The notes: generated by a model from the letters alone, not told the origin. Shown: positions 1-56,359, counted from the first letter of the stretch. The stretch: DNA of 64,000 bases from a virus (IMGVR_UViG_3300023493_000006:10434-74433), one strand, 5' to 3'. Made by a program: numbers and translations.

Positions 1-3000
1 TACGCTTCCAGAAAATTCACCTTGGTTAAAATGAACACCTGTATTGTCAATATATCCAACCTGTGCACCACTTGCATCCAGAATGGAAAGCAATCCGTTC
101 CCGTTATTTGAACCGCCAAGTTTCAATGTGCCTCCATGTGCATAGGTGAATGAAAAATACAATTCTCCATTTTCCATGTACATGCCCTTTATTGCACCAT
201 TGTTTGTAAGCATATTGAACACTTGCTCATTTGTGTAAGCGTATTCAAGTTTTGGCATATAAATATAAGTATCATATTTTACGCTAGAGCCAACTGATGA
301 TGTCAAGATTCTCAAACTGTTTAAACTATCATTTGGTAAGCTAGATAAAGTTGTTGTTACTTGCAGTCTTTGCCATTCAGTTGTAGTTTTAGCATTTAAT
401 ATTGTTTTACTTCCAAGATACACATATACTTGTGTTGCAACACTAGTTTTTATCCAAAACGAAAAAGTATAATTTCCAGTAACTTTTATTGGCTTATAAT
501 TTTTCGTTCCAAATTGTGCTCCAGTTCCGTTTATTTTTATTGCATTTTTACCGCCATCTACATCCTGGACTCCATACTCATATGTATATGCACTCTGTGT
601 AGACCAATAATCTTTAACATTTTGTTCTGTTAGATAATAGCCTTTAATAATATTGTCCGATGTAATATCTTGGACTTGTTTTATAGCTTCTTCCTGTGCT
701 ATATCAGTAACGCTTTTATCTCCTAATGTAAACTGTGAAGCTGCTATTGTTACTGCACCAGTAGTTTTGTCAATAGCAAAAGTGGTCTTTCCATTGCTAT
801 CAACAACCTTAATACCTTTGGCTTGCACGTATTCTCCGTTTACATAGACATTTCCGTTTTCATCCAAGTAAATCCCCTGTGCCTTGCCGCCATTGGTGAG
901 TTTGTTGAAAATATCGGCTTGTGTCTGTCCAGAAACTGCGGTGCTGGCAGAAGAATCTGCAATTTCCTTTACTGTTTTGCCTTGTAAGGAAAAAGTTTTT
1001 GGAGCTAGGATGACGTTTCCTTTGCTGTCGATTTCTAAGGTTACGTTCTTGTCATCATTAATGACTTTTAGCCCACGACCATTAATTCTCTCACCGGCAA
1101 GCAATCCAGCCAGAATATATTTTGCATTGATATATACTTTTCCGTCCTCGATGTAGATTCCCTGTTCTGTCCCGCCTTTTGTGAGTTTATTGAACACTTC
1201 ATCCTGTCCAAGACTGGTATCGTAATTATCAATTGCATTTTTGATATCGTCTTTGTCTGCGTACTTGAAGTCAATCCAATCGGATGCAGTAAAGTCACCA
1301 TTAATACGATTTACAAAAGAAGTTTTGAGAGAAGCCTTTCCTTCACTATTGGTCGTTACCCACAAGTCACCTTCGTAATATGGTGGTGTTGGCTGAATCA
1401 TGTAAACAGATGATTTACCGTCTATCTTGTCCAACAATTCATTTGGTATGGACTGTGGTTGCCAGATGCCAGATTTGTATATCCACTGGGTGTTATCCGT
1501 GGTATTATGCCAAAGATCGCCTTCATGCTCTACCTTCTCAGATTCCCATACCAAAACAATTTCATTCCCGGATTCATCCAGAATCTTGTTTCCGTCAATA
1601 TCACACCATGGATATTCCTCTGTTTTTGTCCATTTTACAGATGGATCGTTTGGCTGATACCAAGTCTCAATTTTCCCGTCTATCTGCGTCTTTAAAGAAT
1701 TAAGTGAATCTTTAAAAACACCATTGATAAATAAGTCTAAAGAGCTATCATCCGTATACTTTGAAGCCTTTTCCCAATCATCCACTGAATAAGAGCCGCT
1801 TGCTCTGGCAACCTTACATCTCATCAAGTCACCATTAGAGCCTTGCGTCCATAAGTCTCCAATATCGTAAGGCGGCTCTGGATGAACGACGAATACTCTG
1901 CGCTTATGATCTGCTGTGTCCTGTGCTTTTTCTGCGGCGGCAAGTGCTAACGTGATATCGGTATCTTGTACCAATTGCCACTTCCATGTTGCCCCATCTT
2001 GCATAAAGCGGTATGCATATCCCTTGGATTTCCAGTAAAACAAGTCACCCTCATGTTTCTTTCGTTCTTCGTTTGTAGTCCATCCAGAAGCCGGGATATT
2101 CTGTAAGGTTGGTTCATAATCATAAAAAAAAGTCTCAATCTGTCCATCGATTTGAGACTGTAAATTATTGATATCAGTTGTGTATGTATTGCTGATAAAA
2201 TTATTAACTTCTGTTTCTGCTTTTTCCTTTGCAATCGCATTAACATCTTTTCCCTTGACTTGGACGGAATCCGCATTAATAACAACTCTTCCTGTTGTTA
2301 CATCAACCAGGAAAGTTGTGTTTCCATCTTTATCAATAGCCTTAATGGTTCCTGTATTAATCCAGTCAGCATTAACACCTGTAGCAGTAAGAATTCTGGC
2401 AATCACATCACCATCAACAGTCATACCACCATTCCAATGTTGTCCGCCATCTGTAGAAACAGCCCACGCTTCCGCAGTCATTTTCCATACAATATCAGAA
2501 TCGGATAACTGTGGCTTGTTGTGAAGATAATAAATATTGCTTCCGTCCGGCTGTTGCTCTACGGTAGTATATACGCCAGAGGATTCCGCTAAACGATTAG
2601 ACAACTCCTCTATAGCTTTTTCTCTGGCGGTACGTTCATCTCTTAAATTCTTTTTGTTTTCTGCCTGTACTTGTTGATTAAGGCTGTATTGTTTCTGCTT
2701 ATTCCTAGATACACTCTTAGCACTGCATTCAAGCTGCTCAAATGTGCCTGGATTCAAAGCAACAGAAGTTAGGAAGCTCTTGTACTGTTTCCCATTTCTG
2801 TCGGAAATCTCAATGGTGTCACCAGCTTCCCATGCAATATTGGTCAATGCGCCTGTGGTAAACGGTCTGAATTTCAGCCCCACGCACCTGTCTGCGATAA
2901 TTTGACAGATTTTCTCGCCAGAGCCTTCTTGAATTAGCTTATTATCACTAATTTCGATAACATAGCCAGATTCCCCCGACTGATATGTTTTCGCTTCATT

Positions 3001-3852
3001 TTGAGAAGAATTTTCAACGTATTCTGTAACTTTTACACCTGTTATTTCGACATCGTACAGCCATGGTGTGAATCCATTTGTATCTATGGCTGTAATACCC
3101 TTTTGCATAACAGTTATAATCTGTGCGCCTTTTGTGTCAAGAATGTCGTTCCCATCAGTATCTTTCCATGGCGTTTCAACCAAATTGTAAAATTTATCCG
3201 GTACTTCACGCTCATACCATCCAAGGCAAAGCCTTCCGTATTCGTCACTTTTCGCCCACTGACAGCCCATCTGTGCTATCCATGCAATTACCTGTCTGAA
3301 GGTAATACTGCTATCATCTGGTCGATTCTGAATTACGAAATCATCATTATCAAACCTTGTAGATTGTAATGTAACGCCGCAGACCTCGCAAGCATCCTGT
3401 ATGATCTGTAATCTAGTTGCCGGATAGGACAGCTTACTTTCTGAATAATCACGATCAAACAATCGCATGGAATCTTCGCAAGTTAGGCTAATAATAGCGG
3501 TGTTCTGATATGGCGCATCTGTTACTGTCATGGTACAGATACGGATTTTTTCAATGCCAGTAGATAATTCAAGCCCAATATAGCAAACAACTCTCGCTCC
3601 GTCCCAGATGTAGTCTGTGTATTTGCCAGAAAAGTTGTTGATCTGCAATGTCAGCTTATTTACGATAGCTGCGCCGATATCAAAAGAACCGCTTTGCGAT
3701 ACTGCATCCTCAAATTTAAAGCCATTAGACCATAAATCTTTGTCGGTAATGGATAATGTACTTCCGTCTGTGAAGGTAAAATCTGCATATTTCAGATAGT
3801 TACGGTTCCCACTATTCTGTTGTTCTTTAAATTCCGTTGATAAATTTCGCAT
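1..3852 (-). CDS. Phage tail tip / host-specificity protein (Tal-like). N-terminal prophage-endopeptidase-tail domain followed by W-rich tail-fibre repeats. The C-terminus runs off the window start
   Basis: Open minus-strand frame from the ATG at 3852-3850 (RBS GAGGTAAG) down to position 1. N-terminus reads MRNLSTEFKEQQNSGN...TDKDLWSNGFKFEDAVSQSGSFDIGAAIVN, typical of Tal N-domains. Later there are repeated IETWYQPNDPS...W and GDLW motifs and GIYIEDGKVYINA-type fibre repeats. Confidence 0.75.
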   Translation of the reverse strand, partial: MRNLSTEFKEQQNSGNRNYLKYADFTFTDGSTLSITDKDLWSNGFKFEDAVSQSGSFDIGAAIVNKLTLQINNFSGKYTDYIWDGARVVCYIGLELSTGIEKIRICTMTVTDAPYQNTAIISLTCEDSMRLFDRDYSESKLSYPATRLQIIQDACEVCGVTLQSTRFDNDDFVIQNRPDDSSITFRQVIAWIAQMGCQWAKSDEYGRLCLGWYEREVPDKFYNLVETPWKDTDGNDILDTKGAQIITVMQKGITAIDTNGFTPWLYDVEITGVKVTEYVENSSQNEAKTYQSGESGYVIEISDNKLIQEGSGEKICQIIADRCVGLKFRPFTTGALTNIAWEAGDTIEISDRNGKQYKSFLTSVALNPGTFEQLECSAKSVSRNKQKQYSLNQQVQAENKKNLRDERTAREKAIEELSNRLAESSGVYTTVEQQPDGSNIYYLHNKPQLSDSDIVWKMTAEAWAVSTDGGQHWNGGMTVDGDVIARILTATGVNADWINTGTIKAIDKDGNTTFLVDVTTGRVVINADSVQVKGKDVNAIAKEKAETEVNNFISNTYTTDINNLQSQIDGQIETFFYDYEPTLQNIPASGWTTNEERKKHEGDLFYWKSKGYAYRFMQDGATWKWQLVQDTDITLALAAAEKAQDTADHKRRVFVVHPEPPYDIGDLWTQGSNGDLMRCKVARASGSYSVDDWEKASKYTDDSSLDLFINGVFKDSLNSLKTQIDGKIETWYQPNDPSVKWTKTEEYPWCDIDGNKILDESGNEIVLVWESEKVEHEGDLWHNTTDNTQWIYKSGIWQPQSIPNELLDKIDGKSSVYMIQPTPPYYEGDLWVTTNSEGKASLKTSFVNRINGDFTASDWIDFKYADKDDIKNAIDNYDTSLGQDEVFNKLTKGGTEQGIYIEDGKVYINAKYILAGLLAGERINGRGLKVINDDKNVTLEIDSKGNVILAPKTFSLQGKTVKEIADSSASTAVSGQTQADIFNKLTNGGKAQGIYLDENGNVYVNGEYVQAKGIKVVDSNGKTTFAIDKTTGAVTIAASQFTLGDKSVTDIAQEEAIKQVQDITSDNIIKGYYLTEQNVKDYWSTQSAYTYEYGVQDVDGGKNAIKINGTGAQFGTKNYKPIKVTGNYTFSFWIKTSVATQVYVYLGSKTILNAKTTTEWQRLQVTTTLSSLPNDSLNSLRILTSSVGSSVKYDTYIYMPKLEYAYTNEQVFNMLTNNGAIKGMYMENGELYFSFTYAHGGTLKLGGSNNGNGLLSILDASGAQVGYIDNTGVHFNQGEFSGSV

Positions 3853-3855
3853 ATC

Positions 3856-4221
3856 TTACCTCTCGATAAAATCAAAACTAAGTCCTTCCATGCGCTCATT
3901 TCCTATCCACCAGCACTTAAAAGGGGATTCCCTGTCACCAACATAGAATGTTCTGGTTTCGTGCTTATTCGCAGACAGCAAGTCTGGATATGTGACCTGT
4001 ATGTACTCTGGATTTACTGCCTGTATAATTTTGCAAGCAGTGTCCCAATCTGGGCCATTCCAACCTACAGACAGCTTTCGTTTCTGTCCAACTCTGTTTT
4101 TGTGCATGGTCGTATCGTCTGTTCTGCCGGATTCTGATGCCGATATATCCTGTAATCCCCATGTAAAAGAAGAAGGACAGGGCATTGCTACCCCATCCAC
4201 TTTTAAAAATGCTTCTGCCAT
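3856..4221 (-). CDS. Short (121 aa) putative distal-tail-protein-like (Dit N-domain-like) protein immediately upstream of Tal
   Basis: ORF with its stop 3 nt before the Tal start. MPCPSSFTWGLQDISASESGRTDD resembles the PxP...GRxG start of Sipho_tail/Dit proteins, but the length is about half of a normal Dit. Confidence 0.35.
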   Translation of the reverse strand: MAEAFLKVDGVAMPCPSSFTWGLQDISASESGRTDDTTMHKNRVGQKRKLSVGWNGPDWDTACKIIQAVNPEYIQVTYPDLLSANKHETRTFYVGDRESPFKCWWIGNERMEGLSFDFIER

Positions 4222-4357
4222 ATGCTAACCCTCATGTATTTTTACACACGAAAAAAGCGCCTACCCCGAAATGTAAACGCTTTAAAAATTGCTTATTATG
4301 ATTTTATATTTTGACACTCCCCACAGCTAAAGCATGGGGGTTTTACGACACACTGGA

Positions 4358-4446
4358 TAAAAAGCACTGGATATTTTAATCCAATGCTCTACTTTATATT
4401 TTACACATATTGACGGTATCATTCAGTATATTATGGTATCATTTGT
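4358..4446. promoter_or_regulatory. Copy A of a conserved late-promoter-like repeat (GGTATCAT N12 GGTATCAT core) upstream of the Dit-like/Tal operon
   Basis: ~90% identical over ~85 bp to 29243-29335. Shares a 25-bp core with 17478-17507. Confidence 0.5.
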
Positions 4447-4553
4447 TTTATATAAATGTTAAACTTATAAACTTTTTTCAGATATTCTATTCCACTATCC
4501 GTTTTGGAGTGGTAAAATAGGTATATCATACTGATTTAGGGAGGAAAACGCAT

Positions 4554-5450
4554 ATGAAAAAATTCAAAAAACTACTGGCAGTTTTTACCATAATGTTACT
4601 GATTGTCTGTATGGCAGTTCCAGTATCGGCGGCCGGTAAAATTAACAAGAAAAAAGTCACTTTGAAAGTCGGTCAAACATTACAATTAAAAGTAACTGGA
4701 ACAAAAGGAAAAGTAAAATGGACAAGTAGCAAAAAATCTGTTGCTACGGTATCTTCTAAAGGACGTGTAAAAGCGAAAAAGAAAGGTTCCGCTACAATTA
4801 CCGCAAAGATTGGTAAAAAGAAATATACCTGTAAAGTTACTGTGAAAAAGGCTTCTAATGGCAATGGCGGTTTTGGTGGAAATCCAAATGCTAACAGCAG
4901 TGGTAAAAAGAATGTTGTTAGTTATCATGCAGAATCTACGCCGTATGGAGCTGTGGCAATTCTGGAAAACCATTATGACCATGCAGTTGATCTGACCGTT
5001 GAATTTATCTATTATCTGAATGGAACAATGGTCGGAGTTGATAAGGATTATAATTTTGCGTTTGCAGCACATTCAAAATGTGCACTTCAAGGCTGGAATT
5101 CTGATAAAACGTGGGATTCTTTTAAAATCAATTTGAATATTAAGAAAGCATCTTCAAGTGTTATAACAAATAACTCGGGAATTCATTATTCAGCCAATTT
5201 TGGAAATAGAAATGTAGTGGTAAAAGTAGATAACAATGGACGGAAAAATGCGTTTACCACTATTGCAATTGTATTTTATAAAAATGGTAGGATAGTGGGG
5301 TATGATGATCGTAATGCTGATGTAAAAAATCCAGGATCGACAGCTTATCTCGAATTTGATTTTCCATTTGATAGGAATTTCGAGGATATCATACCAGATA
5401 AATTTGAAGTATATGTAAATGATTCGTATACATATAGCTGGATGAATTAA
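4554..5450 (+). CDS. Secreted protein with a signal peptide and a bacterial Ig-like (Big_2) domain, plus an unknown C-terminal domain
   Basis: MKKFKKLLAVFTIMLLIVCMAVPVSAAG signal peptide. VTLKVGQTLQLKVTGTKGKVKWTSSKKSVATVSSKGRVKAKKKGSATITA is a Big_2 signature. RBS GGGAGGAA. Confidence 0.7.
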   Translation: MKKFKKLLAVFTIMLLIVCMAVPVSAAGKINKKKVTLKVGQTLQLKVTGTKGKVKWTSSKKSVATVSSKGRVKAKKKGSATITAKIGKKKYTCKVTVKKASNGNGGFGGNPNANSSGKKNVVSYHAESTPYGAVAILENHYDHAVDLTVEFIYYLNGTMVGVDKDYNFAFAAHSKCALQGWNSDKTWDSFKINLNIKKASSSVITNNSGIHYSANFGNRNVVVKVDNNGRKNAFTTIAIVFYKNGRIVGYDDRNADVKNPGSTAYLEFDFPFDRNFEDIIPDKFEVYVNDSYTYSWMN

Positions 5451-5457
5451 TATAAAA

Positions 5458-5479
5458 GGCTAGGGAGAAATCCCTAGCC
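5458..5479. terminator. Bidirectional hairpin terminator between convergent genes
   Basis: GGCTAGGGAGAAATCCCTAGCC perfect stem-loop between the + gene ending at 5450 and the - gene ending at 5489. Confidence 0.6.
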
Positions 5480-5488
5480 CTAATCTTA

Positions 5489-6997
5489 TCAGTTAATGTA
5501 TTCAACATCTATGCTTGGCAATGTTACTTGTTTCCCAAGAAGTGTTGTAGAATTTAATGTTCCGCTACAAGTTCCGTATACGGTTACCCAATCTCCTTCT
5601 AGGTAATGTGTTTCGCCATCCTCATAGCTATATGAACAATCCCATTTATTACCGTTTCCGTCAACAATATACAACGTATATCCACCGAATATTCCTTCTA
5701 ATGACTGATCTATTGTTCCAGAGACAACACAATGTTTTTTATCGTAACTGTCTGGATTTCTCAATATATCATTATAATCTAACGTCTGGCAAAGTGCCTT
5801 GTATTCGTCCTCTGAAACTTCTTTTGAATTAGCAACTTCTTCTGTCACTACAAAATACTGTGATAAACTATCATCTGAAGCATCCTTTTTATAGCTTTTA
5901 GCTTCATCACCTTTTGCAAATACCATACAATTCTCTAAATTTATGGAATCTCCCATAAATCCCCATGAATCTACATTTGATACTGTTCCAAGAATAGCAA
6001 CCACATCATCATCTTTAAGACCGCTTTCATATTTTGCATACAATTTACTATCAGATACATTAAAATTACTCATCATGTATTTATCACCAATAGTAACTTG
6101 CACCTTATTGTCTTTAATCTCACTTATTGTTGCTACAGTATAAATTTTAGCTCCGCTCATATTGACTGCATATTTATATAAATCGCTGTCAGTGATATAA
6201 GAATATTCACCAGAATTAAATGTTTGTAATTCATCATCAAAAGTAATTGGAGCCACATTCTGTTTTTTCTCTTCTACTGTAGGAGTTGCTTTTCTTTCGT
6301 AACTACTGGATTTTTCCGTCTGCGTTTTGGATGTATCTGCTGTTTTCTCTGTTTTAGATGAATACCAGCCAATTAGAATAAACACAAGGCAGATAAAACC
6401 AAAATAGTTTGCGCATCCCCCTTTTTTCTTTTTCTTGGTAGCTGTCGGCTGTGGCGTGTACTGTGGTTCTGGTGCAGAATATGTTTTAGGTTTTTCGATA
6501 TTCTCAATAGTTGTTCTGGTCTTGTTTGCTTCGCCCCTGTCGCAATTATCCATTACACTCTTTTCAAGCATATACCATTCAACAACATATTGTTTTTTGA
6601 AGTACCGCTCCGCAATCTCTGTTGTAAATTCTTTTGCCTGTTCATATGCGGAAGAGCCTGTTGATAAGCAAATTTTGAAAGGCTTTGCGTATTTCGGAAT
6701 TGAAAAAGCAACTTTCAACTGTACTCTCCCTAAATCGTCTGGTTCTTCTTTATCATAATTCAATACAAAATCCATAGGATTTGCTTCAAGTAACAAATTT
6801 CCTTTGTAGTAAACCTCAATATTCGCTTTTGAAGCCTTGATTCTCATGGAATCTAACATCTCAATGTCGTATTCCTTTTGCTTCTGTGGCGGTTCCTGTG
6901 TTACATTTCCCTGTGTTATCGGGAATCCACAGTTCGGGCAACTTGCCGCTTTATCACTTATTTCCTTGCCGCATTCTGGACATTTAATCAGTGCCAT
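5489..6997 (-). CDS. Membrane protein with an N-terminal cytoplasmic zinc ribbon (CPECG...CPNCG), one TM segment and a large extracytoplasmic domain
   Basis: Start chosen at MALIKCPECGKEISDKAASCPNCG (RBS GGAGGGGG). TM segment ANYFGFICLVFILIGWY. The ORF track extends 21 aa further upstream. Confidence 0.6.
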   Translation of the reverse strand: MALIKCPECGKEISDKAASCPNCGFPITQGNVTQEPPQKQKEYDIEMLDSMRIKASKANIEVYYKGNLLLEANPMDFVLNYDKEEPDDLGRVQLKVAFSIPKYAKPFKICLSTGSSAYEQAKEFTTEIAERYFKKQYVVEWYMLEKSVMDNCDRGEANKTRTTIENIEKPKTYSAPEPQYTPQPTATKKKKKGGCANYFGFICLVFILIGWYSSKTEKTADTSKTQTEKSSSYERKATPTVEEKKQNVAPITFDDELQTFNSGEYSYITDSDLYKYAVNMSGAKIYTVATISEIKDNKVQVTIGDKYMMSNFNVSDSKLYAKYESGLKDDDVVAILGTVSNVDSWGFMGDSINLENCMVFAKGDEAKSYKKDASDDSLSQYFVVTEEVANSKEVSEDEYKALCQTLDYNDILRNPDSYDKKHCVVSGTIDQSLEGIFGGYTLYIVDGNGNKWDCSYSYEDGETHYLEGDWVTVYGTCSGTLNSTTLLGKQVTLPSIDVEYIN

Positions 6998-7059
6998 AAA
7001 TATCCCCCTCCTTAGTATGATACCCATATTGTACCACCTTTGGGCGTATTCTGGAAGCA

Positions 7060-7275
7060 CTATTTCGCTTTTCTATCAATTTCCGCAGTTACGGCAAACA
7101 AAAGAGCTTCGGCAAATTTTGCTCCGACCGAATCGGAGTATTTATCGTGAATCCGGCTTGCTTCCATGGTGAGATTTTCCCACTGCGGAATATCGTCCTT
7201 TGAGATAAAAGCGTACTTCTTGTGAAGATTCCATATATCTTGCCAGATGGAAAAGTAAGTCTGCTTGAAATCCAT
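7060..7275 (-). CDS. Hypothetical protein (71 aa)
   Basis: ORF in the operon with 7275..7577. Confidence 0.4.
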   Translation of the reverse strand: MDFKQTYFSIWQDIWNLHKKYAFISKDDIPQWENLTMEASRIHDKYSDSVGAKFAEALLFAVTAEIDRKAK

Positions 7276-7577
7276 TATACGTACAACACTCCATGATATT
7301 TCTCGAGCCTATATTTCTGTTTCACATTTGGATATTTTTCACGATCTACCTCACTGTAAAACATATTTTTCGGTCTGGCGTATAATTGCTTACTGCCATA
7401 CAGGGCTTTGTATATCACTAGGTCTTCTCCTGTTTCCGTATGCCTAGCAAAACCGACAATCTCATACAGGTATTCATTGTCACGCGGATTCTCGATAGTT
7501 TCTCGCTTAAAGTGCTGTACAATATCCCCTGGCTTAAATAATTGTCTGTTCATTTTCATTGTTACCTTTCTCCACAA
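7275..7577 (-). CDS. DUF1653-like protein
   Basis: [36 protein letters not shown] matches the DUF1653 consensus (H-K-..Y.v..a.hTEt.e..VvY..Lyg...w.RP). Confidence 0.55.
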
Positions 7578-7665
7578 TTAATTAATTTCTTTGCTCAAAT
7601 TTCAATTTTCTTTGCTTGTGCCTATATTTTATCATGCGAGAAGTTTTGAAACGGATTTGATTATT

Positions 7666-8298
7666 TTATCGCAGTAATTCTTTATCAATAATCTGGAAGT
7701 TCGCCCTGTGGATATAAAGAGCTTTTCCGTCAATCATTAACTTTGTCATTTTAGGTAGATCGTCCGGGATTTTCCAGAACACCTCGTCACCAGAATATGC
7801 GGCTATGGGCTGTCCAAGTTGAGATTTAATTACTACAACCCTAGATTTTCCGAAATAATTTTTATAATAATTTAGAATCCCGGCTATGTATGCGTTCTCT
7901 GAAATCTTCCCGGTTGAATGACTGGTAATATCTTCCTGGGTAAAATCAACCTCCGGCTCCAATCCTTTTTGCTCAAAAATACAAGTATCACCACAGCTTT
8001 CAATTTCTTTACCGTCAATCAGAATTGTAATAACGGAAGATACGTCATAGCTGGTTGTTTCGTTACCCTCGCTATCGTAGCCCTTGGATTTGGTTTTATT
8101 CCCGGCAATGTTGATCTTGTCCCCAGTGGTGGTCATAACCTTTTTGCCGTAGTTATCGTAGGTATAGATTGTGTAGCTGTTTCCAGAAAGATTTCCTTTC
8201 ACGTCATTCATGTAATCGTCATTCGCTGCACAGCCTGTTAGCCCTGTGATAATGCAAATACAGGTAATTATCGCCAGTAGTGTTTTGATTCTTTTCAT
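7666..8298 (-). CDS. Lipoprotein
   Basis: MKRIKTLLAIITCICIITGLTGC lipobox. Confidence 0.65.
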   Translation of the reverse strand: MKRIKTLLAIITCICIITGLTGCAANDDYMNDVKGNLSGNSYTIYTYDNYGKKVMTTTGDKINIAGNKTKSKGYDSEGNETTSYDVSSVITILIDGKEIESCGDTCIFEQKGLEPEVDFTQEDITSHSTGKISENAYIAGILNYYKNYFGKSRVVVIKSQLGQPIAAYSGDEVFWKIPDDLPKMTKLMIDGKALYIHRANFQIIDKELLR

Positions 8299-8768
8299 GG
8301 TTTTTGTCCTCCCTCATATGTCTCATAATCAATCGTTCCCAAATCACCGTACACATCTGGATAATAAATTCCAACCCAGAAGTTATCTTCCATTGCTTTG
8401 TAGTAAGTTACTTTTACATTCCATCTCTGTACCTCGTCAACAATTTCTTTGTTTAGAAGTCCGAATTGATCTCGGCAAGCTTCACTTTCCAGTTTGTAAG
8501 TCAATGCTTTGTATTTCTCTGCATTTGCCTGTCTGGTGGCGGTAACCGTAGTCTGGCTTATTGCTAAAAGCAATCCCGCGATCAAAAGATATACCGCACC
8601 GATAAAAGCCACTGCTACGCCCAAAACAAGCACGGTTGCGCTCACATTCGAATACTCATATTCGTAGCTTAAAGATTCTCCTATTCTATTTGCAATCAGA
8701 ATAACAACGCCGACTGCAAAAATGATTATTGATAGCCAAAATATCATAGTGTGTCCTCCCTGTCCCAT
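8295..8768 (-). CDS. Membrane protein (two TM segments). Translationally coupled to the lipoprotein
   Basis: MIFWLSIIIFAVGVVILIA and VLVLGVAVAFIGAVYLLIAGLLLAI segments. ATGA overlap with the downstream gene. The true start is probably at MIFW. Confidence 0.5.
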   Translation of the reverse strand: MGQGGHTMIFWLSIIIFAVGVVILIANRIGESLSYEYEYSNVSATVLVLGVAVAFIGAVYLLIAGLLLAISQTTVTATRQANAEKYKALTYKLESEACRDQFGLLNKEIVDEVQRWNVKVTYYKAMEDNFWVGIYYPDVYGDLGTIDYETYEGGQKP

Positions 8769-8840
8769 TCTGCGTCAGATTTATCTGACATAATAATATC
8801 GTTAGATATTATTTAAATATAATTCTTTCTCTTTTTCTTA

Positions 8841-8940
8841 ATCTAAATCTATATCTAAATCTATATCTAAATCTATATCTAAATCTATATCTAAATCTAA
8901 ACCTTAATCTGAGTGCGTCTACTATGCGTCTTTTGTGCGT
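8841..8940. repeat. Iteron array: ATCTAAATCTAT x4.5 tandem 12-mers plus a GAGTGCGTCT..TGCGTCTTTTGTGCGT tail. Homologous to intragenic repeats at 48541-48660
   Basis: Perfect tandem 12-mers read directly. Same ATCTAAATCT / ATCTGAGTGCGTCT / TGCGTCTTTTGT motifs occur inside the replisome organizer gene. Confidence 0.8.
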
Positions 8941-9063
8941 TTAAAAAAATAAGAACTCTAAATTCGTCATTTTTATATTATATTTCACCAAAATTCAACT
9001 TGTAAAAATACATATTTTATCTGTTATGCTGATTTTTACGGATTTTTGTGTCGAAATAAAATT

Positions 9064-9241
9064 CTTATTTATTTCTTATTTAACGCTTATTTTTTCTTAT
9101 TTGATGCAAAATAAAAAATTATTTTACCTTAAATTAAAACTTGTTTTTCCTTATTTGCTCCCTATTTAATTCTTATTTACTATCATTAATAGTAAAATAA
9201 GGTCTTATTTGAGCAATTTAATTTTCAGATAAAGCCTTATT
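9064..9241. repeat. Eight direct copies of the heptamer CTTATTT (plus one CCTATTT) in an AT-rich noncoding stretch. Second iteron family of a candidate origin
   Basis: CTTATTT at 9064, 9075, 9086, 9097, 9150, 9172, 9204 and 9235 (approximate), all in the same orientation. Confidence 0.6.
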
Positions 9242-9254
9242 TTACCGAAATTAA

Positions 9255-9551
9255 TTATTCAAACAAGCTAAATACGTCTTTGCAAAATTCCTCATAGTCG
9301 ATATTCCCGACCAGTGGCATTTTATTTCTCAGCTTTTCCATTGCTTTAAAAAACTTTCCTTGGTCTTTATTCCAGATTTTACAGAAAACAAGAAGATACT
9401 TCTCTTCCTTATGTCCATATTCTTTTCCAAAATTCACCCGAATTTTCTCATTCTTAAAAAGTTGGTCTGCCAGATACTCTTCTGTATCTGCAAAAATGTA
9501 TTCGCTGCGGAATAAATGCTTTTGGATTAAGATGTAATTTTTATATGACAT
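9255..9551 (-). CDS. Hypothetical protein (98 aa)
   Basis: ORF with no recognisable motif. Confidence 0.4.
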   Translation of the reverse strand: MSYKNYILIQKHLFRSEYIFADTEEYLADQLFKNEKIRVNFGKEYGHKEEKYLLVFCKIWNKDQGKFFKAMEKLRNKMPLVGNIDYEEFCKDVFSLFE

Positions 9552-9637
9552 GATATTCCTCCCTGTGAAAAAGGTTCCATTTTAAATCGAACCTTTCCAG
9601 ACCTCATTTTAAATGCGGGCTGTCTAAAAATTCAAAA

Positions 9638-10309
9638 TTATGCCGCAATTTTATTAAGAAAATCTTCTATTTCTTCATAATTCCATCCATTACATATTAA
9701 TGCGCCAGCAATTTCAGTTAATTGTTTTATTTTTAAATTTTGCTCATCAGATAAATAAAATCTAAAACTTGTAAATTTCTTTGGTTTGTATTTTTTTACA
9801 AGGCTTTCCGTGTTTCCACCTAATACAATTTGGTATATCAAGTCAGAATAAATATTTGGCTCGTCAAGACCTTTTACGGCATTGGTGAATTTTTCAATTT
9901 CTTTATTCTCATTTGATAATCTTATATATTCTTCAACAGACGAATTAGTTAAGCCCAAAATTTTTTGGGAAATTTCCAATACTCTTTCTTTTACAGAATT
10001 AGCATATTCTTTTTTGATTGAACGCATTTCTTCTTCGGAAATATATTCGCCTATCTTATGTATGGTTTCATCAATTAAATTCAAATCAACAAAAGAAAAC
10101 CACTCTCCACCAATTCTGTATTTCTGGAACAACTTATGAAGCTTATTTTCTACAAAATATGGATTTTTTAAATAATTGCTTTCATAAATTATTTTTGAGA
10201 AAGGGAGACCACATGATACTTGTGCAAGCCTTTTTTCAACGCATTGGCTTGTCCCTATTTTATATTTTTCTTCATGTTTAAAAACGTAAATCTTTTTAAA
10301 ATTTTCCAT
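9638..10309 (-). CDS. T5orf172 (MUG113/GIY-YIG-like) domain protein
   Basis: Start MENFKKIYVFK (RBS GGGGAGG). IYVFK...YKIGTS..VEKRLAQ...VENKLHKLFQKYRIGGEWFSF matches the T5orf172 consensus (YKIG(T/S)...R......H..L...R..GEWF). Confidence 0.6.
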   Translation of the reverse strand: MENFKKIYVFKHEEKYKIGTSQCVEKRLAQVSCGLPFSKIIYESNYLKNPYFVENKLHKLFQKYRIGGEWFSFVDLNLIDETIHKIGEYISEEEMRSIKKEYANSVKERVLEISQKILGLTNSSVEEYIRLSNENKEIEKFTNAVKGLDEPNIYSDLIYQIVLGGNTESLVKKYKPKKFTSFRFYLSDEQNLKIKQLTEIAGALICNGWNYEEIEDFLNKIAA

Positions 10310-10462
10310 CAAGTTGTTTTCCTCCCCAAAATAAAAAAGAGCCGCCAAGTAAGATAAAAATTCCTCAAAATTGAGAAATATTAATTTCTTCTTAGCGGCT
10401 CAAAAATCAAAACCGTGTGTACTTCTTCATTAAAGAAATCATACCACACAATCAGTCAAAAA

Positions 10463-13400
10463 TCAATATGCCGGGGACGGTTTGAAACGGCTATCTGTAT
10501 CATTTTGGGCTTTTGTTACTGCTTTTGCAATCTCGCTTCCGTCCAGAATAATGCTATTCATAATGTACTGCGGATTGTTATTTCCGCTGTTCATACTCAT
10601 TGCCATTGCAACGCCCTGTGCTACTGCTTTTGCCATTTCTTCTTTTGTAAGTCCCATGCTTCCGTCCGAACTGGAAACAATGCTGTCTGCAATCTTCTTC
10701 ATGGTTCGTGGATTTTCCAGCGGAAGGACGGCTTCAGAACCGGCTTCACCGATACCGATTACCTGTGCGCCGTTGAAAAGACCACCTTTGGCGTACCAAT
10801 TAGGCTTGTAAACTGGTGTAGAACTAGTTCTTCCACCACCAAGATCATGTTTTCTCCACTCTGAAATATAATAAGTTAGAGTTGGTAAATGTACTTGTTT
10901 CATGCCATCAGCGAATGATTGAGCAGTTTCCCGACCAATTGATGTAAGATTAACATTAAATAGCCTTTTAATTTTATCCGAAATCCCAGACAAATTAGAT
11001 TCTGTGTAGGTTTTCATTTTCCCAGTTTCCGTGTCAACTTTACCAGAAGCCTTTTCCCAAATCTGGTTTGTATTGATTAGAACAGAAGACCAATAGCTTT
11101 GAATGGTGGTCATAACCTTACCCATTATATCTTTGGTATCGGTATCCATGGTTCCGAGGGCTGTCGATACAGCACTTGCGGAATTTCCCCAGTTTGTTTT
11201 GGAGTTGGTTTCAACATCATCATTCGTGTTCTTTATCTTTGACCAAATGGAAGGCATTGTGCTTTCTGTGCTTTTTTTCATTCCAGCCATTGCCGTGCTT
11301 ACAGCTGCACTGGCTATTCCAAAACCAGTCTTAGAGTTTGAAGAAATGGATTTCGTAGCTGTTTCCACTGATTTGCTCATTGTTGATGAAGATTTTGGAA
11401 CATCTTCTGAAAAAGCTTTAATAACTTTTCCTGTGTCAATTCCCATCTCTGCCATTTTATCCATCAAGGCTTGGAATGCGGCTCTGGCTGTTGCACCAGA
11501 TGATTCTTGTTGCTGAAGGACAGCACTTAATTCATCAAACTGCGTTGGAGTGATTACCGCTTGATTTGAAAGTCTTTCTAATGCAGATTTCGCATTATCA
11601 AATTCTGTCCCCATCGTACCGATATATTCATTAATATTACTTACATGAGAATTTGTAGAAGTATCGGATTCTTCCATTGCCTGTTTTAATGCTTGCTTAA
11701 ATGTATCGGAAGAAATTCCAAGATTTTCAAGTGATGTTTCTACAGTTTGGAGCTGTCCATCAAAATCAAATGCATTGTCTTTCACATTTTTTAAATCACC
11801 GCCAAGACCGATAAATTTATCCCCGGAAATTCCAGTTTGGTCTTCAAGGATTTTTAATGCTTTTCTAACAACTTCAAAATCGTTGAATGCGTCAGCTGTG
11901 GAGTCTTTAAAGTCCATAGCTTTTTTTACCTGTCCAAGACCTTCCATGACAAATGCAGTTGCGCCCAAATTTGTTGCGTATCCCCAAAATCCTTGGAATT
12001 GTCCACCAGCTGTTTGTGCGACGTCACCAAGATTTTTTATCTTTTCAGCAAGGGTAGTAAATCCTCCATTTCCTGCGGATTCTGCCGCATCCCCTAAATC
12101 TTTTATTGCTTCTTTTGCTCCACTCGTGCCATCTCCAAGGACATCTGCTAATTTTTCAGCAATGAGATCAGCATTTTCTTTGGCAATAATTTTTCCGCCA
12201 ATGTGATCAATAAGGTTCCATGCAAGTTCTCCAATTCCGCTTACTTTAAGAACATTTACGACAAGAAAGGCTTTTCCAAGAATATCAACAAGACTTCCAA
12301 CAAGCGGATGGTCTTCTTTTATTCCGTCCACCAATCCGTTAAAAGCACTTGATAAGCCTCCTAGAATCAAATCAGCCGCAGTACCAAGGATTTCACCCCA
12401 TGGTAACTCACCAAGGAACGTTCCAACGCCTTGTCCAAATTCATAAAAAGTGTCTTTGGTGAGAGAATCTTTTAATGCTGTACACAAATGAGATATAAAA
12501 TCTCCAAGAGCCTGTCCATTTTCTTTCCAGTTTGTTTCTTTGATGAATTTAGCGATTCCATCTCTTATCTTGGTTGCGAGATCATCCCAATTAAATGTTT
12601 CTGTAAATGATTTTAAGCTTTCGAACGCTCCGTTTAATAAACCAGAAAGTGCATCTGCAATTGTGTTCATGTCTATCTTTTTGATTGCACCATTTAAGGC
12701 TTTTCCAATAGCAGTGCCAAGCTTACCCCATCCAGTAATTCCAGCACCATCTTTTTTAGACATATCCTTTACAAAGCCAGAAAGCATTTTCCAAGATGCC
12801 ATAAAACTGTTTCCGATTAAGGTTCCAAGACCTGTCCAGTCAATTTCCTTTATAGCTCCTTTTAAAAGTTGAGACAGTTTTGCCCCTATTCCAGAAAAAT
12901 CTATTCCTCCATCTCCAAGCAACAGGTTTAGAGTATTTACTGCTGTGTTAATTCCAGATCCAAGCATTCTTCCAATTAAGTCGAAATCAATTCCGCTAAC
13001 CATGGAATTAAATGCTGTTGTAAATGCATTTACAAATTCGGTTATTTTCGGGCCAACATTATTCCAATTAATAACTTCATATATTTTTTGCATTCCGACA
13101 TTTATCATGTCTGCAATAGTGGAACCTAGTCCCTGCCAGTCTTTATTGATAAATGCTTTTCTGATTTTAGCAGCCCATTTATTAATTGGTGTTTCGTCAA
13201 CAGTCAAAACTTCATCCAGTGAATCTTGTATTCCAGCAAAACTATCTGCTAAATCTCCAAGCCCAGAACCAAGACTTTTAGATGCAGTTCCAGAATTATC
13301 AGAATTATCGGCAAGCTGATTTAATTGGTCGAATGGCAATACAGAAAGTGCCTTTTTCAGTTTCTTAGCAGATGATGTAGCGTCATCAAGACCAGAAGAT

Positions 13401-15127
13401 GCGTCATCACCAGCTGTTTCTATACCACCTAAATTAGATACGATATCACTAACTCCACTCTGCGAGCCTTTTAGTTTCTTTCCCATCAATACATACATGA
13501 AGTTGCGAAATGCATTTGCGGCTTGCATAAGTTTTGACATGAGCGCATTAAGTGCTTGAATAGCCGGGAGAATTCCAGCGATTAAACCTTGCCCGATTAC
13601 TGCAGAAAGTGACTGGAAGTTCAAGGTAAGCAAACGAACCTGGTTCGCCCATGTTCCAGATGTCCTTGCGAAATCCCCTTGCACATCTCCTGTAACTGAC
13701 ATTAAATAGTTGTATCGAAGAGCAACTTTTTCAGCTTGGGACATTGCGTTATAAGATGTTGTAATTCCCCTTGAAAGAGCATAAGCCTCCATATTTGCAA
13801 CGGATAAATTAATTCCCAATTGTCTTAAAGGCTCAATTTCCCCAGAAATTCCAGAGCGTATTTTCTGAAAAGCTGTATCAGTATCAATATTGTAAAATGA
13901 TGCAATATCCCCGGCTAATCCAGCAAGAGAAATTGACATTTTAGAAGCTGCATCTTGCGCAACACCAGACGATTTCATCATTGCCATCATGGTTCCAGAA
14001 TATTGCTTTGCTGCCAATTCGGATAATCCAAATTGTTCTTTGGCCGTAGAAGCAAATTTGTAGGCTTCATCTGCCATGCTTCCAAAGGAAACATCTACAA
14101 CATTTTCGATTTCTGTAATAGCAGAGCCAAAACCAATTGCACTTTTTCCTAAATTTGCCAGACCACGAATAGCCTTAAAACCGATAGCAGTTTTAAGCAA
14201 ATTTCCGAGATTAAAAGAAGCGGTTTTAATTCCAGAACTACTATTCCCGAGACGTTGAAACCATCCAATAATGCCTTTTACCCCGGTTCCAATTATAGAA
14301 GAAGTTTTACTAACAATATTACCAAGGCTAGATGTTGCAGATGATAATTTAGAAAACGCACTGGATATAGAATTTGTAGCGGAATTTACCTTTCCCCCTG
14401 CATTAGCCAACTTTGCCAGTGCTTCCGTCATGCGGATGGTGTTCTCACTTATTTTAGGTGCAGTTTTCATTACATCGAAGAAAGACAATACTTCCTTTGC
14501 TAGTGTTCCAAGCTGGCTTGACGTTTGTCCGATTCTATTTCCAGAGCTTGCCAATTGTGCAATAGACTGAACTAACCTATTTACAGGTTCAGATATATCG
14601 CCAACGCTCGTAAAACTCTCTACGATTGATTTAAGATTTCTTCCAAGCCCAGGCAATTCAGCTGATACATTCGCAATATATTCACCGGAATTGGCTAATC
14701 TAGCCATTGAATTGACAAAGCGATTAACACCGGAAGATACATCTGGAATCTCTGTCAAATTGCTTAATTTATGGATTATTTCTCCGAGTTTTCCTGTGTC
14801 AAAACTGCTTATATCAACCTGGCTAAGTCTATTGATTGAGTTAATAACCGCATTAAGGCCAGAACCTTTATAGTTTACGCCACCCATTGTCTTTATGGAA
14901 TTTGAGAATTTTCCAATTCCAACAGCAATGCTTGTCATTTTCCCTATATCAAGTTCTTTTAGTTTTCCAAGTTCCCTTACACAACTACGTAATCCGTTTG
15001 TATTAACTCCGCTTAATGCGGAATTAACTTCTGTGAGTTTATTTGAAAGATTAGTCAGCGCACGTACTGCTTTTTCTGTACTACTGCTAATTTGTATATC
15101 AAGGGTATCAATGGTATTGTCAGCCAT
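10463..15127 (-). CDS. Tail tape measure protein (1554 aa)
   Basis: Very long alpha-helical, low-complexity protein following the chaperone genes. Strong RBS AGGAGGG. Typical TMP position and composition. Confidence 0.85.
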   Translation of the reverse strand: MADNTIDTLDIQISSSTEKAVRALTNLSNKLTEVNSALSGVNTNGLRSCVRELGKLKELDIGKMTSIAVGIGKFSNSIKTMGGVNYKGSGLNAVINSINRLSQVDISSFDTGKLGEIIHKLSNLTEIPDVSSGVNRFVNSMARLANSGEYIANVSAELPGLGRNLKSIVESFTSVGDISEPVNRLVQSIAQLASSGNRIGQTSSQLGTLAKEVLSFFDVMKTAPKISENTIRMTEALAKLANAGGKVNSATNSISSAFSKLSSATSSLGNIVSKTSSIIGTGVKGIIGWFQRLGNSSSGIKTASFNLGNLLKTAIGFKAIRGLANLGKSAIGFGSAITEIENVVDVSFGSMADEAYKFASTAKEQFGLSELAAKQYSGTMMAMMKSSGVAQDAASKMSISLAGLAGDIASFYNIDTDTAFQKIRSGISGEIEPLRQLGINLSVANMEAYALSRGITTSYNAMSQAEKVALRYNYLMSVTGDVQGDFARTSGTWANQVRLLTLNFQSLSAVIGQGLIAGILPAIQALNALMSKLMQAANAFRNFMYVLMGKKLKGSQSGVSDIVSNLGGIETAGDDASSGLDDATSSAKKLKKALSVLPFDQLNQLADNSDNSGTASKSLGSGLGDLADSFAGIQDSLDEVLTVDETPINKWAAKIRKAFINKDWQGLGSTIADMINVGMQKIYEVINWNNVGPKITEFVNAFTTAFNSMVSGIDFDLIGRMLGSGINTAVNTLNLLLGDGGIDFSGIGAKLSQLLKGAIKEIDWTGLGTLIGNSFMASWKMLSGFVKDMSKKDGAGITGWGKLGTAIGKALNGAIKKIDMNTIADALSGLLNGAFESLKSFTETFNWDDLATKIRDGIAKFIKETNWKENGQALGDFISHLCTALKDSLTKDTFYEFGQGVGTFLGELPWGEILGTAADLILGGLSSAFNGLVDGIKEDHPLVGSLVDILGKAFLVVNVLKVSGIGELAWNLIDHIGGKIIAKENADLIAEKLADVLGDGTSGAKEAIKDLGDAAESAGNGGFTTLAEKIKNLGDVAQTAGGQFQGFWGYATNLGATAFVMEGLGQVKKAMDFKDSTADAFNDFEVVRKALKILEDQTGISGDKFIGLGGDLKNVKDNAFDFDGQLQTVETSLENLGISSDTFKQALKQAMEESDTSTNSHVSNINEYIGTMGTEFDNAKSALERLSNQAVITPTQFDELSAVLQQQESSGATARAAFQALMDKMAEMGIDTGKVIKAFSEDVPKSSSTMSKSVETATKSISSNSKTGFGIASAAVSTAMAGMKKSTESTMPSIWSKIKNTNDDVETNSKTNWGNSASAVSTALGTMDTDTKDIMGKVMTTIQSYWSSVLINTNQIWEKASGKVDTETGKMKTYTESNLSGISDKIKRLFNVNLTSIGRETAQSFADGMKQVHLPTLTYYISEWRKHDLGGGRTSSTPVYKPNWYAKGGLFNGAQVIGIGEAGSEAVLPLENPRTMKKIADSIVSSSDGSMGLTKEEMAKAVAQGVAMAMSMNSGNNNPQYIMNSIILDGSEIAKAVTKAQNDTDSRFKPSPAY

Positions 15128-17477: not shown

Positions 17478-17507
17478 TTGTTTAGTATCATTCAGTATAT
17501 TATGGTA
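17478..17507. promoter_or_regulatory. Copy C (core only) of the late-promoter-like repeat: TAGTATCATTCAGTATATTATGGTATC
   Basis: 25/25 bp identical to copy A's core. Lies ~90-120 bp upstream of the 16985..17386 start. Confidence 0.45.
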
Positions 17508-17513
17508 TCTTCT

Positions 17514-47635: not shown

Positions 47636-48165
47636 TTTTCAGCACCTCCCAATCTGGCAGTATCTATAATTTTTAAAAGGTCTGGACTTAGTTTTCTTCG
47701 TTCTTGTTCTCTTTGCACTTCTGCCCGATACGTCCTTTGAAAATTTGATTGAACTACACTCCACCATGTACCATCTGCATTTTCAGATACCGCCCATTCT
47801 CTAAGTTGTGCCGGACTTGATACTGCTTTCTGAATGATTTTTGGAAGCTTATCAAACTCTGTTTCTGCGTTATATGTAGAGTTCTGAATAGCTTTGCATA
47901 CCTTTTCCCAGGCTTCTGTTTCATTCAGCTCTTCCTTTTGCGGTGCAACGCTTTGTGCGCATTGCCTTAATGCGGCTATTGATGGCTCTTTCCATTCCGT
48001 CTGCATATATTTCTTTAATCCGAAACTTAAAAGCTTGTAATCCAGGTCTTTCAGTAATCCGTACCAAGTATCAAAAGCATATTGATCTGGCAGAAATGCT
48101 GGGGAAGTGTACACAGCTTTCATTGCCTTTACCAGTACCGCCCATTCTTCTCTTGTCATACCCAA
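47605..48165 (-). CDS. G39P-like replicative helicase loader
   Basis: MTREEWAVLVKAMKAVYTSPAFLPDQYAFDTWYGLLKDLDY...EPSIAALRQCA parallels the G39P N-domain pattern. Directly downstream of the replisome organizer. Confidence 0.45.
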   Translation of the reverse strand: MGMTREEWAVLVKAMKAVYTSPAFLPDQYAFDTWYGLLKDLDYKLLSFGLKKYMQTEWKEPSIAALRQCAQSVAPQKEELNETEAWEKVCKAIQNSTYNAETEFDKLPKIIQKAVSSPAQLREWAVSENADGTWWSVVQSNFQRTYRAEVQREQERRKLSPDLLKIIDTARLGGAENCQIENHGEN

Positions 48166-55904: not shown

Positions 55905-56359
55905 AACTCCATCTGTCCATCATCAATAAACTTCTTTTTCTTCCGGCTCAATATATTACCCTGCTGTTTCAATCTATTCACACGGGCTTTCTGGTTAAAG
56001 CTTGCCATATAATCATCGTCAACTTCTGGCGGTACTTTTAGAAAATATTCTTCGGGAAGTGGAAGATTATGTTCCTCACAACAATTTGCAATCTCATTTC
56101 TGTATGAAAGAATATGATTTCTGGTTAGATTCATATTGCAGCCATCCGCCCAAAATGGATCATTACAGCCATTTTCGTTGATGCGCTCCCAGATAACACG
56201 CTCATGTAATAGATTTTCTCTTAACAGCTCTAATTCCTGTTCCGGTGTTTTCTGCTTCATTCTCCTTCTCCTTTCGCTCATGTAAACAATTGACACGCTA
56301 TTGTGCAGTTGGCACATGATTTTAATACTCAATAAAATCAGATAATTCCATCTGACCAA
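55898..56359 (-). CDS. Hypothetical protein (153 aa)
   Basis: ORF. Confidence 0.4.
   Translation of the reverse strand: MVRWNYLILLSIKIMCQLHNSVSIVYMSERRRRMKQKTPEQELELLRENLLHERVIWERINENGCNDPFWADGCNMNLTRNHILSYRNEIANCCEEHNLPLPEEYFLKVPPEVDDDYMASFNQKARVNRLKQQGNILSRKKKKFIDDGQMEFC

Follow-up and report, generated by a model that had tools for sequence, protein, structure and literature searches.

The 64,000-nucleotide stretch of viral DNA IMGVR_UViG_3300023493_000006:10434-74433 (the window) holds a siphovirus-type genome with genes for terminase, portal, major head protein, tape-measure protein (TMP), a serine recombinase and four tRNAs. Its TMP gene is separated from the gene for a 121-amino-acid protein, identified here as the distal tail protein (Dit), by an island of 6,241 bp (4222–10462). 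We read the TMP/Dit junction as a long-lived, recombination-driven hotspot for accessory genes (morons), a statement about anatomy and evolution to which we give a probability of about 0.7. The initial annotation of the window had reported a block of ~6 kb between TMP and the tail-tip genes; open reading frame (ORF) listing and profile searches confirmed the block, at 6.2 kb, and recovered in its place each of the genes attributed to it.

Islands of differing content occupy the TMP/Dit junction

A scan of IMG/VR with the 121-amino-acid protein yielded 183 relatives, of which 80 were kept, all 98–100% identical in Dit. A complete TMP-to-Dit interval was present in 61 of these, and counts given below over 62 islands add the window. 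All 61 close relatives carried an island at the junction, of 4,565–9,790 bp (the upper end being bounded by the 10-kb flank). ORFs were called and their proteins clustered, and gene orders were counted on the ~40 credible families only. The 62 islands held 6–15 genes each (median 11) in 59 distinct orders, and the order in the window was unique in the set. The edges of the island were sharp, with 98–100% of the 61 relatives aligning at 80% identity or more to positions 3251–4250 and 10501–10750, and the C-terminal 250 nt of TMP aligning in 99%; the interior aligned in 10–76% of relatives, with a peak of 95% at the gene for a 71-amino-acid protein (p71). Eight further loci with the exact Dit sequence, taken from ENA, Logan and JGI assemblies, all had islands, in new combinations.

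More distant lineages were sampled by their Dit homologues. Islands were found at 81% Dit identity (5.5 kb; a Blautia metagenome-assembled genome (MAG), L084), at 80% (L085–L088; 3.7 kb in L085), at 72% (5.5 kb; L205), at 70% (5–6 kb; L089–L091) and at 67% (3.5 kb; L207). These islands hold related families, including DUF5052 (72% identity, in the lineage at 80% Dit identity), Zn-ribbon (52–60%), initiator-like, AntA/ORF6C, RHH and Rha proteins. No island was present in the lineages at 77% (MT835477, 18-nt gap) and 65% Dit identity (L206, 52-nt gap). Given its presence in most lineages down to 67% Dit identity, the hotspot is old and persistent within this clade of gut phages; it is absent from distant cultured relatives.

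Gene order is kept while content changes slot by slot, such that the island is built from ordered slots filled by interchangeable cassettes. The block fits the definition of a moron (PMC3594210): it lies between two genes that adjoin each other in related phages, its base composition differs from that of its surroundings (GC 27–34% across much of the island, and 27–31% at 9001–10500, versus 40–42% in the flanking tail genes), and signals resembling promoters and terminators appear to be its own. One of the two explanations offered by the initial annotation, that of a moron hotspot, is therefore supported, as TMP and Dit are adjacent in other phages and every close relative has a differently composed island.

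Insertion sequences were seen within the islands of some relatives: TnpB (family c53) in L022 and L065, and a DDE_Tnp_1 insertion in L102 (5464–6795) that splits an initiator-like gene. Such insertions fit dispensability of the island. Three GenBank scaffolds from human faecal samples in Mexico deposited as "Bacteriophage sp." (MT837588, MT838081 and MT838118) are 89–96% identical to the window; the island of MT837588 (L001) is a variant with a 238-amino-acid gene directly upstream of Dit.

The 121-amino-acid protein is a complete single-domain Dit

The initial annotation had described Dit as truncated or missing, a description that the following results contradict. The protein, encoded on the minus strand at 3856–4221, matches phrog_1194 over positions 3–125 of 125 (E 2.4e-36) and Pfam DUF6711 (PF20458) over positions 8–133 of 134 (26.6 bits versus a cut-off of 27), and these full-length profile matches make it a member of the DUF6711/phrog_1194 family. 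The database search yielded 468 homologues, and nearly all of the 120 listed are of 116–123 amino acids; among the homologues listed, many with 65–77% identity carry a precomputed PF20458 assignment. Full-length homologues were also found by tblastn in 101 GenBank phage records.

The protein has an N-terminal tail-tube-like beta-sandwich, i.e. the complete tube/Dit fold, with just 12–16% sequence identity to the solved structures. As the fold by itself does not discriminate Dit from tube proteins, and no DUF6711 tail-tip structure exists, the assignment is based on fold and conserved gene position taken together. As to position, the gene abuts at 3855/3856 that of a very large tail protein (1–3855, minus strand; at least 1285 amino acids; phrog_6616 tail protein, E 4e-198; no match in a Pfam search), which occupies the Tal position, forms the downstream conserved flank and has an open frame that continues past the left edge of the window. 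The island intervenes on the TMP side, and the short gene thus lies between TMP and the Tal-position gene. The same order of TMP, ~120-amino-acid protein and very large tail protein, with gaps of 8–16 nt, was found in four cultured phages (Enterococcus phiFL3A, Latilactobacillus phage TMW 1.1365 P3, Oenococcus phi9805 and pneumococcal IPP9), in which the Dit homologue is the sole gene separating the other two; according to the record of TMW 1.1365 P3, an induced lysate was the source of the purified virions. Contiguity of TMP and Dit elsewhere, proposed earlier as a check, was accordingly found in these four phages and in MT835477 and L206 (8–52 nt), and was also counted for L002.

The galectin-like or carbohydrate-binding second domain of classical Gram-positive Dits is absent from the protein. 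This does not exclude Dit function, since the protein fits the minimal type represented by the single-domain tip ring proteins lambda gpM (109 amino acids) and that of phage T1 (116 amino acids), which are of similar size; the DUF6711 proteins of phiFL3A-like phages are of the same single-domain class. We conclude that the 121-amino-acid protein is a complete, minimal distal tail protein and is not truncated. Its exact sequence is present on at least 1000 contigs, typically of 77–85 kb, and is indexed in 3,754 blocks of a public assembly collection; this phage lineage is very common in human-gut metagenomes.

The island genes do not belong to the core. In the close clade p71 alone is found throughout (62/62 islands), and a candidate role for it as a hidden core tail gene was rejected because it is missing from islands of more distant lineages, where it is either absent or just 42% identical. 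The initial annotation had named, as what would refute it, functional relatives in which the short protein is the only Dit and the intervening genes are core: the former holds, the latter does not.

Organisation of the island into slots

Read in the coding direction, the island of the window comprises a regulator and a 98-amino-acid gene, an origin-like module, an envelope operon and a convergent pair of genes for exported proteins. It begins beyond the TMP gene (10463–15127, minus strand; 1554 amino acids; phrog_1535 tape measure, E 2e-92), which forms the upstream conserved flank.

The slot next to TMP (slot A) holds a T5orf172/MUG113 protein (9638–10348, minus strand), with clear matches to Pfam MUG113 (50.7 bits, E 2.7e-13) and T5orf172 (40.8 bits versus a cut-off of 20, E 3.2e-10). 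Its probable true start is the ATG at 10309, giving 223 amino acids, and this form is called in relative L101. Its last 73 amino acids share homology with the C-terminal part of the Rha-like family c4 (E 9e-9), and relatives fill the slot with a gene of Rha, AntA, T5orf172, HNH or GIY-YIG-like type. Given this Rha-type C-terminal module and the alternation with Rha and AntA, the protein appears to be a regulator of the Bro/Rha class in which the N-domain has been swapped, and not a homing nuclease. The 98-amino-acid gene (family c8; 9255–9551, minus strand) follows the TMP-side slot and is present in 32/62 islands; its product has no match in Pfam and PHROG searches, and profiles assign it no function.

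On the far side of the origin-like module lie the membrane and lipoprotein genes, all on the minus strand. A promoter-like site (TTTAAA-16-TATTAT, 8790–8817, minus strand), which is a consensus match only, precedes the gene for a membrane protein with three hydrophobic, presumed transmembrane (TM), segments (8295–8768). The probable start of this gene is at 8747, giving 150 amino acids in agreement with gene calls in relatives, and it is present in 38/62 islands. Its 3' end overlaps the start of the gene for a DUF5052 lipoprotein of 210 amino acids (7666–8298; Pfam DUF5052, E 2e-75; phrog_2316, E 5e-55), which has a lipobox, LTGC, at residue 20 and is found in 42/62 islands. A common ribosome-binding junction, GGGAGGACACACTATG, starts these membrane and lipoprotein genes whether an initiator-like gene or the array described below lies upstream. 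The genes for a DUF1653 protein (7275–7577; Pfam, E 2.5e-18; 30/62 islands) and for p71, identified by ORF listing (7060–7275), follow. PDB sequence searches with the lipoprotein, the DUF1653 protein and the Zn-ribbon protein described next gave no match.

A conserved promoter-like motif precedes interchangeable exported proteins

The gene after p71 (slot E) encodes a Zn-ribbon protein (minus strand, 5489–6997 from the ATG, the ORF being open to 7060; Pfam Zn_Ribbon_1, E 1.3e-7). It has a cytoplasmic Zn-ribbon, one TM segment (near residue 214 of the 523-amino-acid ORF) and an extracellular domain of ~290 amino acids; from the ATG at 6997 it is 502 amino acids long, a form that is present in public collections. 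Convergent with it, on the plus strand, slot F holds the gene for a secreted Big_2 protein of 298 amino acids (4554–5450; Pfam Big_2, E 1.3e-11), which has a signal peptide visible in the sequence and belongs to family c1 (42/62 islands). The hairpin between the two genes (5456–5481) resembles a terminator whichever strand is read, with free energies of -19.5 and -17.8 kcal/mol (z -3.6 and -3.9).

An extended -10 promoter-like motif, GTGGTACAATATGGGTATCATACT (TGnTACAAT), lies 5' of the Zn-ribbon gene at 7014–7037 on the minus strand, and an inverted second copy, TGGTAAAAT, lies 5' of the Big_2 gene at 4509–4532 on the plus strand. The 24-nt motif, GTGGTA(C/A)AATA..TATCATACT, reads as an extended -10 promoter (TGnTAMAAT), with a common TTCCAN 17 nt upstream of the -10 hexamer. 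It precedes the gene after p71 in 61/61 relatives, regardless of the family of that gene, and most relatives have the inverted copy 5' of the convergent gene. The occupants of slot E in relatives include Ltp-type, Big_2 and other signal-peptide proteins, and all alternatives in slots E and F carry a signal peptide or a TM segment. Cassette c23, with the same motif and in the same slot as the Zn-ribbon protein, encodes two Lipoprotein_Ltp repeats (E 2e-28); another slot alternative is a fusion of a Zn-ribbon with an S26 signal peptidase. Near-identical signal peptides or N-termini were seen on different cassettes, and the Zn-ribbon ectodomain showed no detectable homology to the Ltp-type cassette. 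The idea that the convergent pair inverts between its two oppositely oriented promoter copies was rejected, as forward and reverse Big_2 genes are different alleles (368 versus 298 amino acids, 45% identity) and family c14 is never forward. Most relatives, unlike the window, add RHH, AntA/Bro-ORF6C, HNH and Rha genes after the convergent pair.

The array is a non-coding copy of repeats from the initiator gene

The 486-nt AT-rich gap between the 98-amino-acid ORF and the three-TM gene contains a tandem array at 8836–8910, with a 6- or 12-nt unit (12.5 or 5.8 copies; Tandem Repeats Finder (TRF) score 119 for the 12-nt reading) and TAGATW as its hexamer. The surrounding origin-like segment, 8770–8960 on the minus strand, is 81% identical in alignment to 48480–48670 (blastn, 74.7% over 162 nt, E 1.6e-23), which falls inside the gene for a DnaD-like initiator (48156–49070, minus strand; 304 amino acids; phrog_5708, E 1.5e-61; O-like phrog_345, E 4.7e-20). 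There the hexamers (array at 48531–48615 by TRF) encode, in frame, an LD-rich linker. Three AGACGCA repeats, CTCAGATWAAG, about 10–12 TAGATW hexamers and a common 3' flank are shared by both copies. The island array has stop codons in all frames, and tblastn of the initiator protein against the island found no coding remnant. The initial annotation had named an iteron array here; a tandem array is indeed present and, as to its identity, it is a non-coding copy of repeats from the phage's own initiator gene.

The array adjoins the most AT-rich stretch of the region (9060–9254, minus strand), which has a GC content of 26.8% and resembles a DNA-unwinding element. Of the 18 minus-strand AAATAAG copies in the window, 8 fall in the 9000–9499 bin, and TRF arrays are also found at 9062–9153. 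Direct repeats homologous to those of the initiator gene thus lie beside an AT-rich region, as expected of an iteron origin. Exact runs of the TWTAGA hexamer, of 4, 6 or 10 copies, are present in the islands of the window and six relatives. Where relatives lack the array, the slot is filled by an initiator-like gene that contains repeats of its own (family c12 or c15); these alternatives match phrog_6493 (E 2e-31) and phrog_270 (E 2e-13). Among the 13 contigs with both a complete island interval and the initiator, phages with a 97–100% identical main initiator carry the array, c12 or c15. A second flavour of array in relatives (GTAACATTACAGTAACG...) gave one exact 26-mer match per contig, which is uninformative on duplication because the two copies in the window itself share just 75–81% identity. 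The length of the main initiator gene varies among relatives by multiples of 6 nt, which suggests slippage in a putative origin within that gene.

SPP1 offers a parallel: its oriL lies inside initiator gene 38, its oriR together with three morons interrupts the late genes between transcription signals, and gp38 binds both origins (PMC6316719). The island resembles the oriR segment in having a second set of repeats homologous to those of the initiator gene, near an AT-rich stretch and among morons in the late region, with putative transcription signals on both sides. The SPP1 segment is fixed and lies between the portal and capsid modules, whereas at the TMP/Dit junction the array is one of the alternatives that fill a variable slot, and is a putative binding site of the initiator. 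By this analogy the iteron copy would bind the resident initiator and act as a second origin or fork barrier in the manner of SPP1 oriR; candidate roles for the array copy are second origin, fork barrier and decoy.

A late-promoter-like element precedes Dit

Three copies of GATACC-N14-GATACC are present in the window (0 expected by chance), all intergenic and on the minus (coding) strand, upstream of Dit (4415–4440), of a 168-amino-acid tail-region gene (17484–17509) and of the portal gene (29303–29328). The Dit-side element (4357–4440) is 94.6% identical over 74 nt to the portal-gene copy, and its core, GATACCATAATATACTGAATGATACC, leads into a hairpin and U-run (4357–4390; -15.9 kcal/mol, z -4.9), with a -10-like TAAAAT at about 4400; a second hairpin and U-run lies between the element and the Dit start codon (4254–4283, minus strand; -14.1 kcal/mol, z -3.4). 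In 60/61 relatives one copy, with at most 4 mismatches, is found at the distal island edge, at 129–291 nt from Dit or at ~800–966 nt with one Rha or T5orf172 gene between.

From these features the element is a putative late promoter or restart site, which would keep Dit and the tip protein expressed despite the interruption. The two hairpins ahead of the Dit start codon suggest antitermination control. If the genes for Dit and the large tail protein do regain late transcription from this distal promoter-plus-hairpin element, the interrupted tail operon would suffer no harm. The three copies lie ~12 kb apart in a promoter-then-hairpin layout and may define late transcription units.

Other features of the genome

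In the relatives the tip gene is followed by genes for an endolysin, a LytTR regulator and a CI-like repressor, from which we take the phage to be temperate. In L085–L088 and L095–L102 the LytTR-type regulator is on the opposite strand between endolysin and CI-like repressor, ~6–8 kb downstream of Dit, and is possibly a signal-responsive lysis/lysogeny switch; this locus falls outside the window, past its left end. The large serine recombinase, of 589 amino acids, is encoded beside a DUF4417 protein at mid-genome (44464–46922), and some close relatives (L098, L100 and L102) have, instead or in addition, a tyrosine integrase beside the endolysin. The minus strand carries the four tRNA genes, for Ser (tga), Met, Met and Gln, at 35209–36223; Rfam and tRNA scans gave no match within the island. 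A 742-amino-acid protein with only a weak pectinesterase/beta-helix match is encoded at 18460–20688 between the head and tail-tube genes, an unusual position for so large a gene. Near the replication genes (49093–50833 and 56322–57212) are a DUF4317 protein, a MazG-like pyrophosphohydrolase and a PAPS-reductase-domain protein, which may have a role in nucleotide or DNA modification. A blastn comparison of the window with itself found no 1.3-kb inverted repeat pairing the tail protein gene with 21.7–23.0 kb.

Possible function of the island and alternative explanations

HK97 gene 15, the first named moron, lies in the tail operon next to TMP and encodes a membrane protein that blocks genome entry; it is expressed from the prophage and excludes superinfecting phages in a manner dependent on the tail region of the incoming phage (PMC3594210). 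The island is similarly accessory DNA within a siphovirus tail operon beside TMP, but consists of a 6–15-gene cassette array, on the other side of TMP and with combinatorial turnover, where HK97 has one small gene. The island proteins have no sequence similarity to gp15, and we infer their function. The lipoprotein Ltp of Streptococcus thermophilus phage TP-J34 acts in superinfection exclusion, and its identified target is TMP (PMC3952083). The likeness lies in cassette c23 of the relatives, with its Ltp repeats in the slot of the window's Zn-ribbon protein, and in the fact that the window also encodes a prophage lipoprotein; the latter differs in belonging to DUF5052, a family of unknown function. 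In TP-J34, ltp lies in the lysogeny module and not in the tail operon.

The moron features of the block, the precedent of HK97 gene 15 and the Ltp-type alternative together favour envelope proteins that the prophage expresses and that exclude related phages. The exported and membrane proteins would probably be expressed from their own promoters in the lysogen and may alter the envelope; most likely they would block superinfecting phages at the stage of adsorption or of DNA entry, in the manner of HK97 gp15 and Ltp. The regulator and origin modules would travel along with them in a single hotspot driven by conflict, and homologous recombination would exchange the cassettes where short regulatory and junction sequences are conserved. 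Lysogen expression, exclusion, initiator binding and promoter activity are all features that we infer from sequence, and we hold superinfection exclusion as the specific function of the envelope proteins tentatively, at somewhat less than an even chance.

Several observations weigh against these proposals. The number of distinct architectures depends on our ORF calling and clustering and on the sampling of IMG/VR contigs. No island protein of the window matches a characterised exclusion or defence protein in PHROG or PADLOC; the Zn-ribbon protein has a weak Sie-like PHROG match (E 3.6e-4), which is confined to the TM/linker region. A PADLOC scan of the eight island proteins and Dit found no defence system, with weak PDC-S57 matches on the T5orf172 domain (E 1.3e-4 and 1.7e-3) and a match to a Cas9 model (E 0.009), probably spurious. 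It is cassettes of relatives that encode the Ltp domain, and Lipoprotein_Ltp (PF07553) matched no protein in the window. The wider repertoire is largely regulatory or related to nucleic acids (Rha, AntA/ORF6C, RHH, HNH and initiator-like genes) and not obviously directed at exclusion. The promoters and terminators are motif matches, and a generic scan gave no excess over shuffled sequence. Finally, the sole lead to a host is the Blautia MAG, whose related phage has 81% Dit identity.

The other explanation in the initial annotation, that an insertion destroyed Dit and left a defective prophage keeping its cargo, could draw on the length of the protein, about half that of two-domain Dits such as SPP1 gp19.1 (242–243-residue chains) and 80alpha gp58 (314), and on a DUF6711 score just below the Pfam cut-off. 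We find it scarcely credible, as the family match is full-length, the listed homologues are likewise of ~120 amino acids, the tube/Dit fold is complete, and cultured phages, one of which was sequenced from virions, have the short Dit as the sole gene separating TMP from the large tail protein; moreover, the protein is 98–100% conserved, its exact sequence recurs on the contigs of ~80 kb counted above, and a conserved promoter-like element lies just 5' of its gene. An independent mobile element (a satellite, transposon or integrative element) inserted into the phage is very unlikely. The low GC content, the origin-like repeats and initiator-like genes, the HNH and T5orf172 genes and the insertion sequences of some relatives would suit such an element, but the island of the window has neither integrase nor transposase and is not bracketed by long terminal direct or inverted repeats, the content of islands varies by slot and not as a unit, and the insertion sequences in relatives are secondary insertions that interrupt island genes. 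That the block is mainly a second origin or regulatory region of the phage's own cycle, with the envelope genes as incidental passengers, is better founded, given the iteron copy homologous to the initiator-gene array beside an AT-rich stretch, the initiator-like genes with internal repeats in the same slot of relatives, the recurrence of antirepressor-class (Rha, AntA/ORF6C, T5orf172) and RHH genes, the presence of an island in every close relative with p71 universal, and the SPP1 precedent. We nonetheless consider it unlikely: p71 is the only universal component, hexamer arrays, exact or degenerate, are by our reading recognisable 5' of the membrane and lipoprotein genes in only about one-third of islands, phages with near-identical main initiators carry any of the three alternatives, two related lineages and all the cultured relatives do without the block, and the best-conserved regulatory motif serves the exported-protein genes.

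Accepting the hotspot, its exported proteins could instead be lysogenic-conversion factors that aid the host in the gut, through adhesion or envelope remodelling, and not exclude phages. The Ig-like Big_2 domains are typical of adhesins and surface proteins, and both the fusion of Zn-ribbon and signal peptidase S26 and the lack of any match of window proteins to a characterised exclusion protein point the same way. An Ltp-type exclusion protein in the same promoter-defined slot argues against conversion, and the extreme presence/absence turnover among near-identical phages suggests, without proving, conflict between phages; we therefore regard conversion as possible but doubtful. It is improbable, in our view, that the island is a dedicated platform for cassette exchange, integron-like in function but working by homologous recombination at portable regulatory joints. 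Such joints may be the extended -10 promoter together with its leader and signal peptide, the ribosome-binding junction and the late restart element. They would allow exported exclusion proteins, and decoy origins or initiators, to be swapped in many combinations across the phage population, and on this platform view the iteron copy or the alternative initiators may titrate or mismatch the initiators of superinfecting relatives. Per, the origin-derived phage-encoded resistance of lactococcal phages, works on the same principle as such titration.

Variable anti-phage hotspots of the P2/P4 type, in phage and satellite genomes, also have a fixed position between conserved genes and many alternative cargo sets in genomes that are otherwise alike, and they carry recognisable defence systems. 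The island differs from these in that PADLOC detected no defence system in it and that its cargo comprises exported proteins, Bro/Rha-class regulators, HNH genes and origin or initiator modules. Literature searches found no description of this locus; as a moron hotspot it has an unusual position, a slot-and-joint architecture and a copy of origin-like repeats.

Implications for gut phages

For annotation, a ~120-amino-acid protein after TMP in these phages should be taken as a complete Dit and not as a pseudogene. The tail operon tolerates an interruption of 5–10 kb, apparently because a repeated late-promoter-like element restarts transcription. Given the abundance of the exact Dit sequence in public assemblies, the hotspot amounts to a natural experiment on a large scale, in a phage lineage that is among the commonest of the gut, with near-identical virion genes joined to dozens of cargo sets. 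If the exported proteins do exclude phages, the islands would provide a ready panel of candidate superinfection-exclusion proteins for Lachnospiraceae, including three families of unknown function: DUF5052, DUF1653 and the Zn-ribbon/TM proteins.

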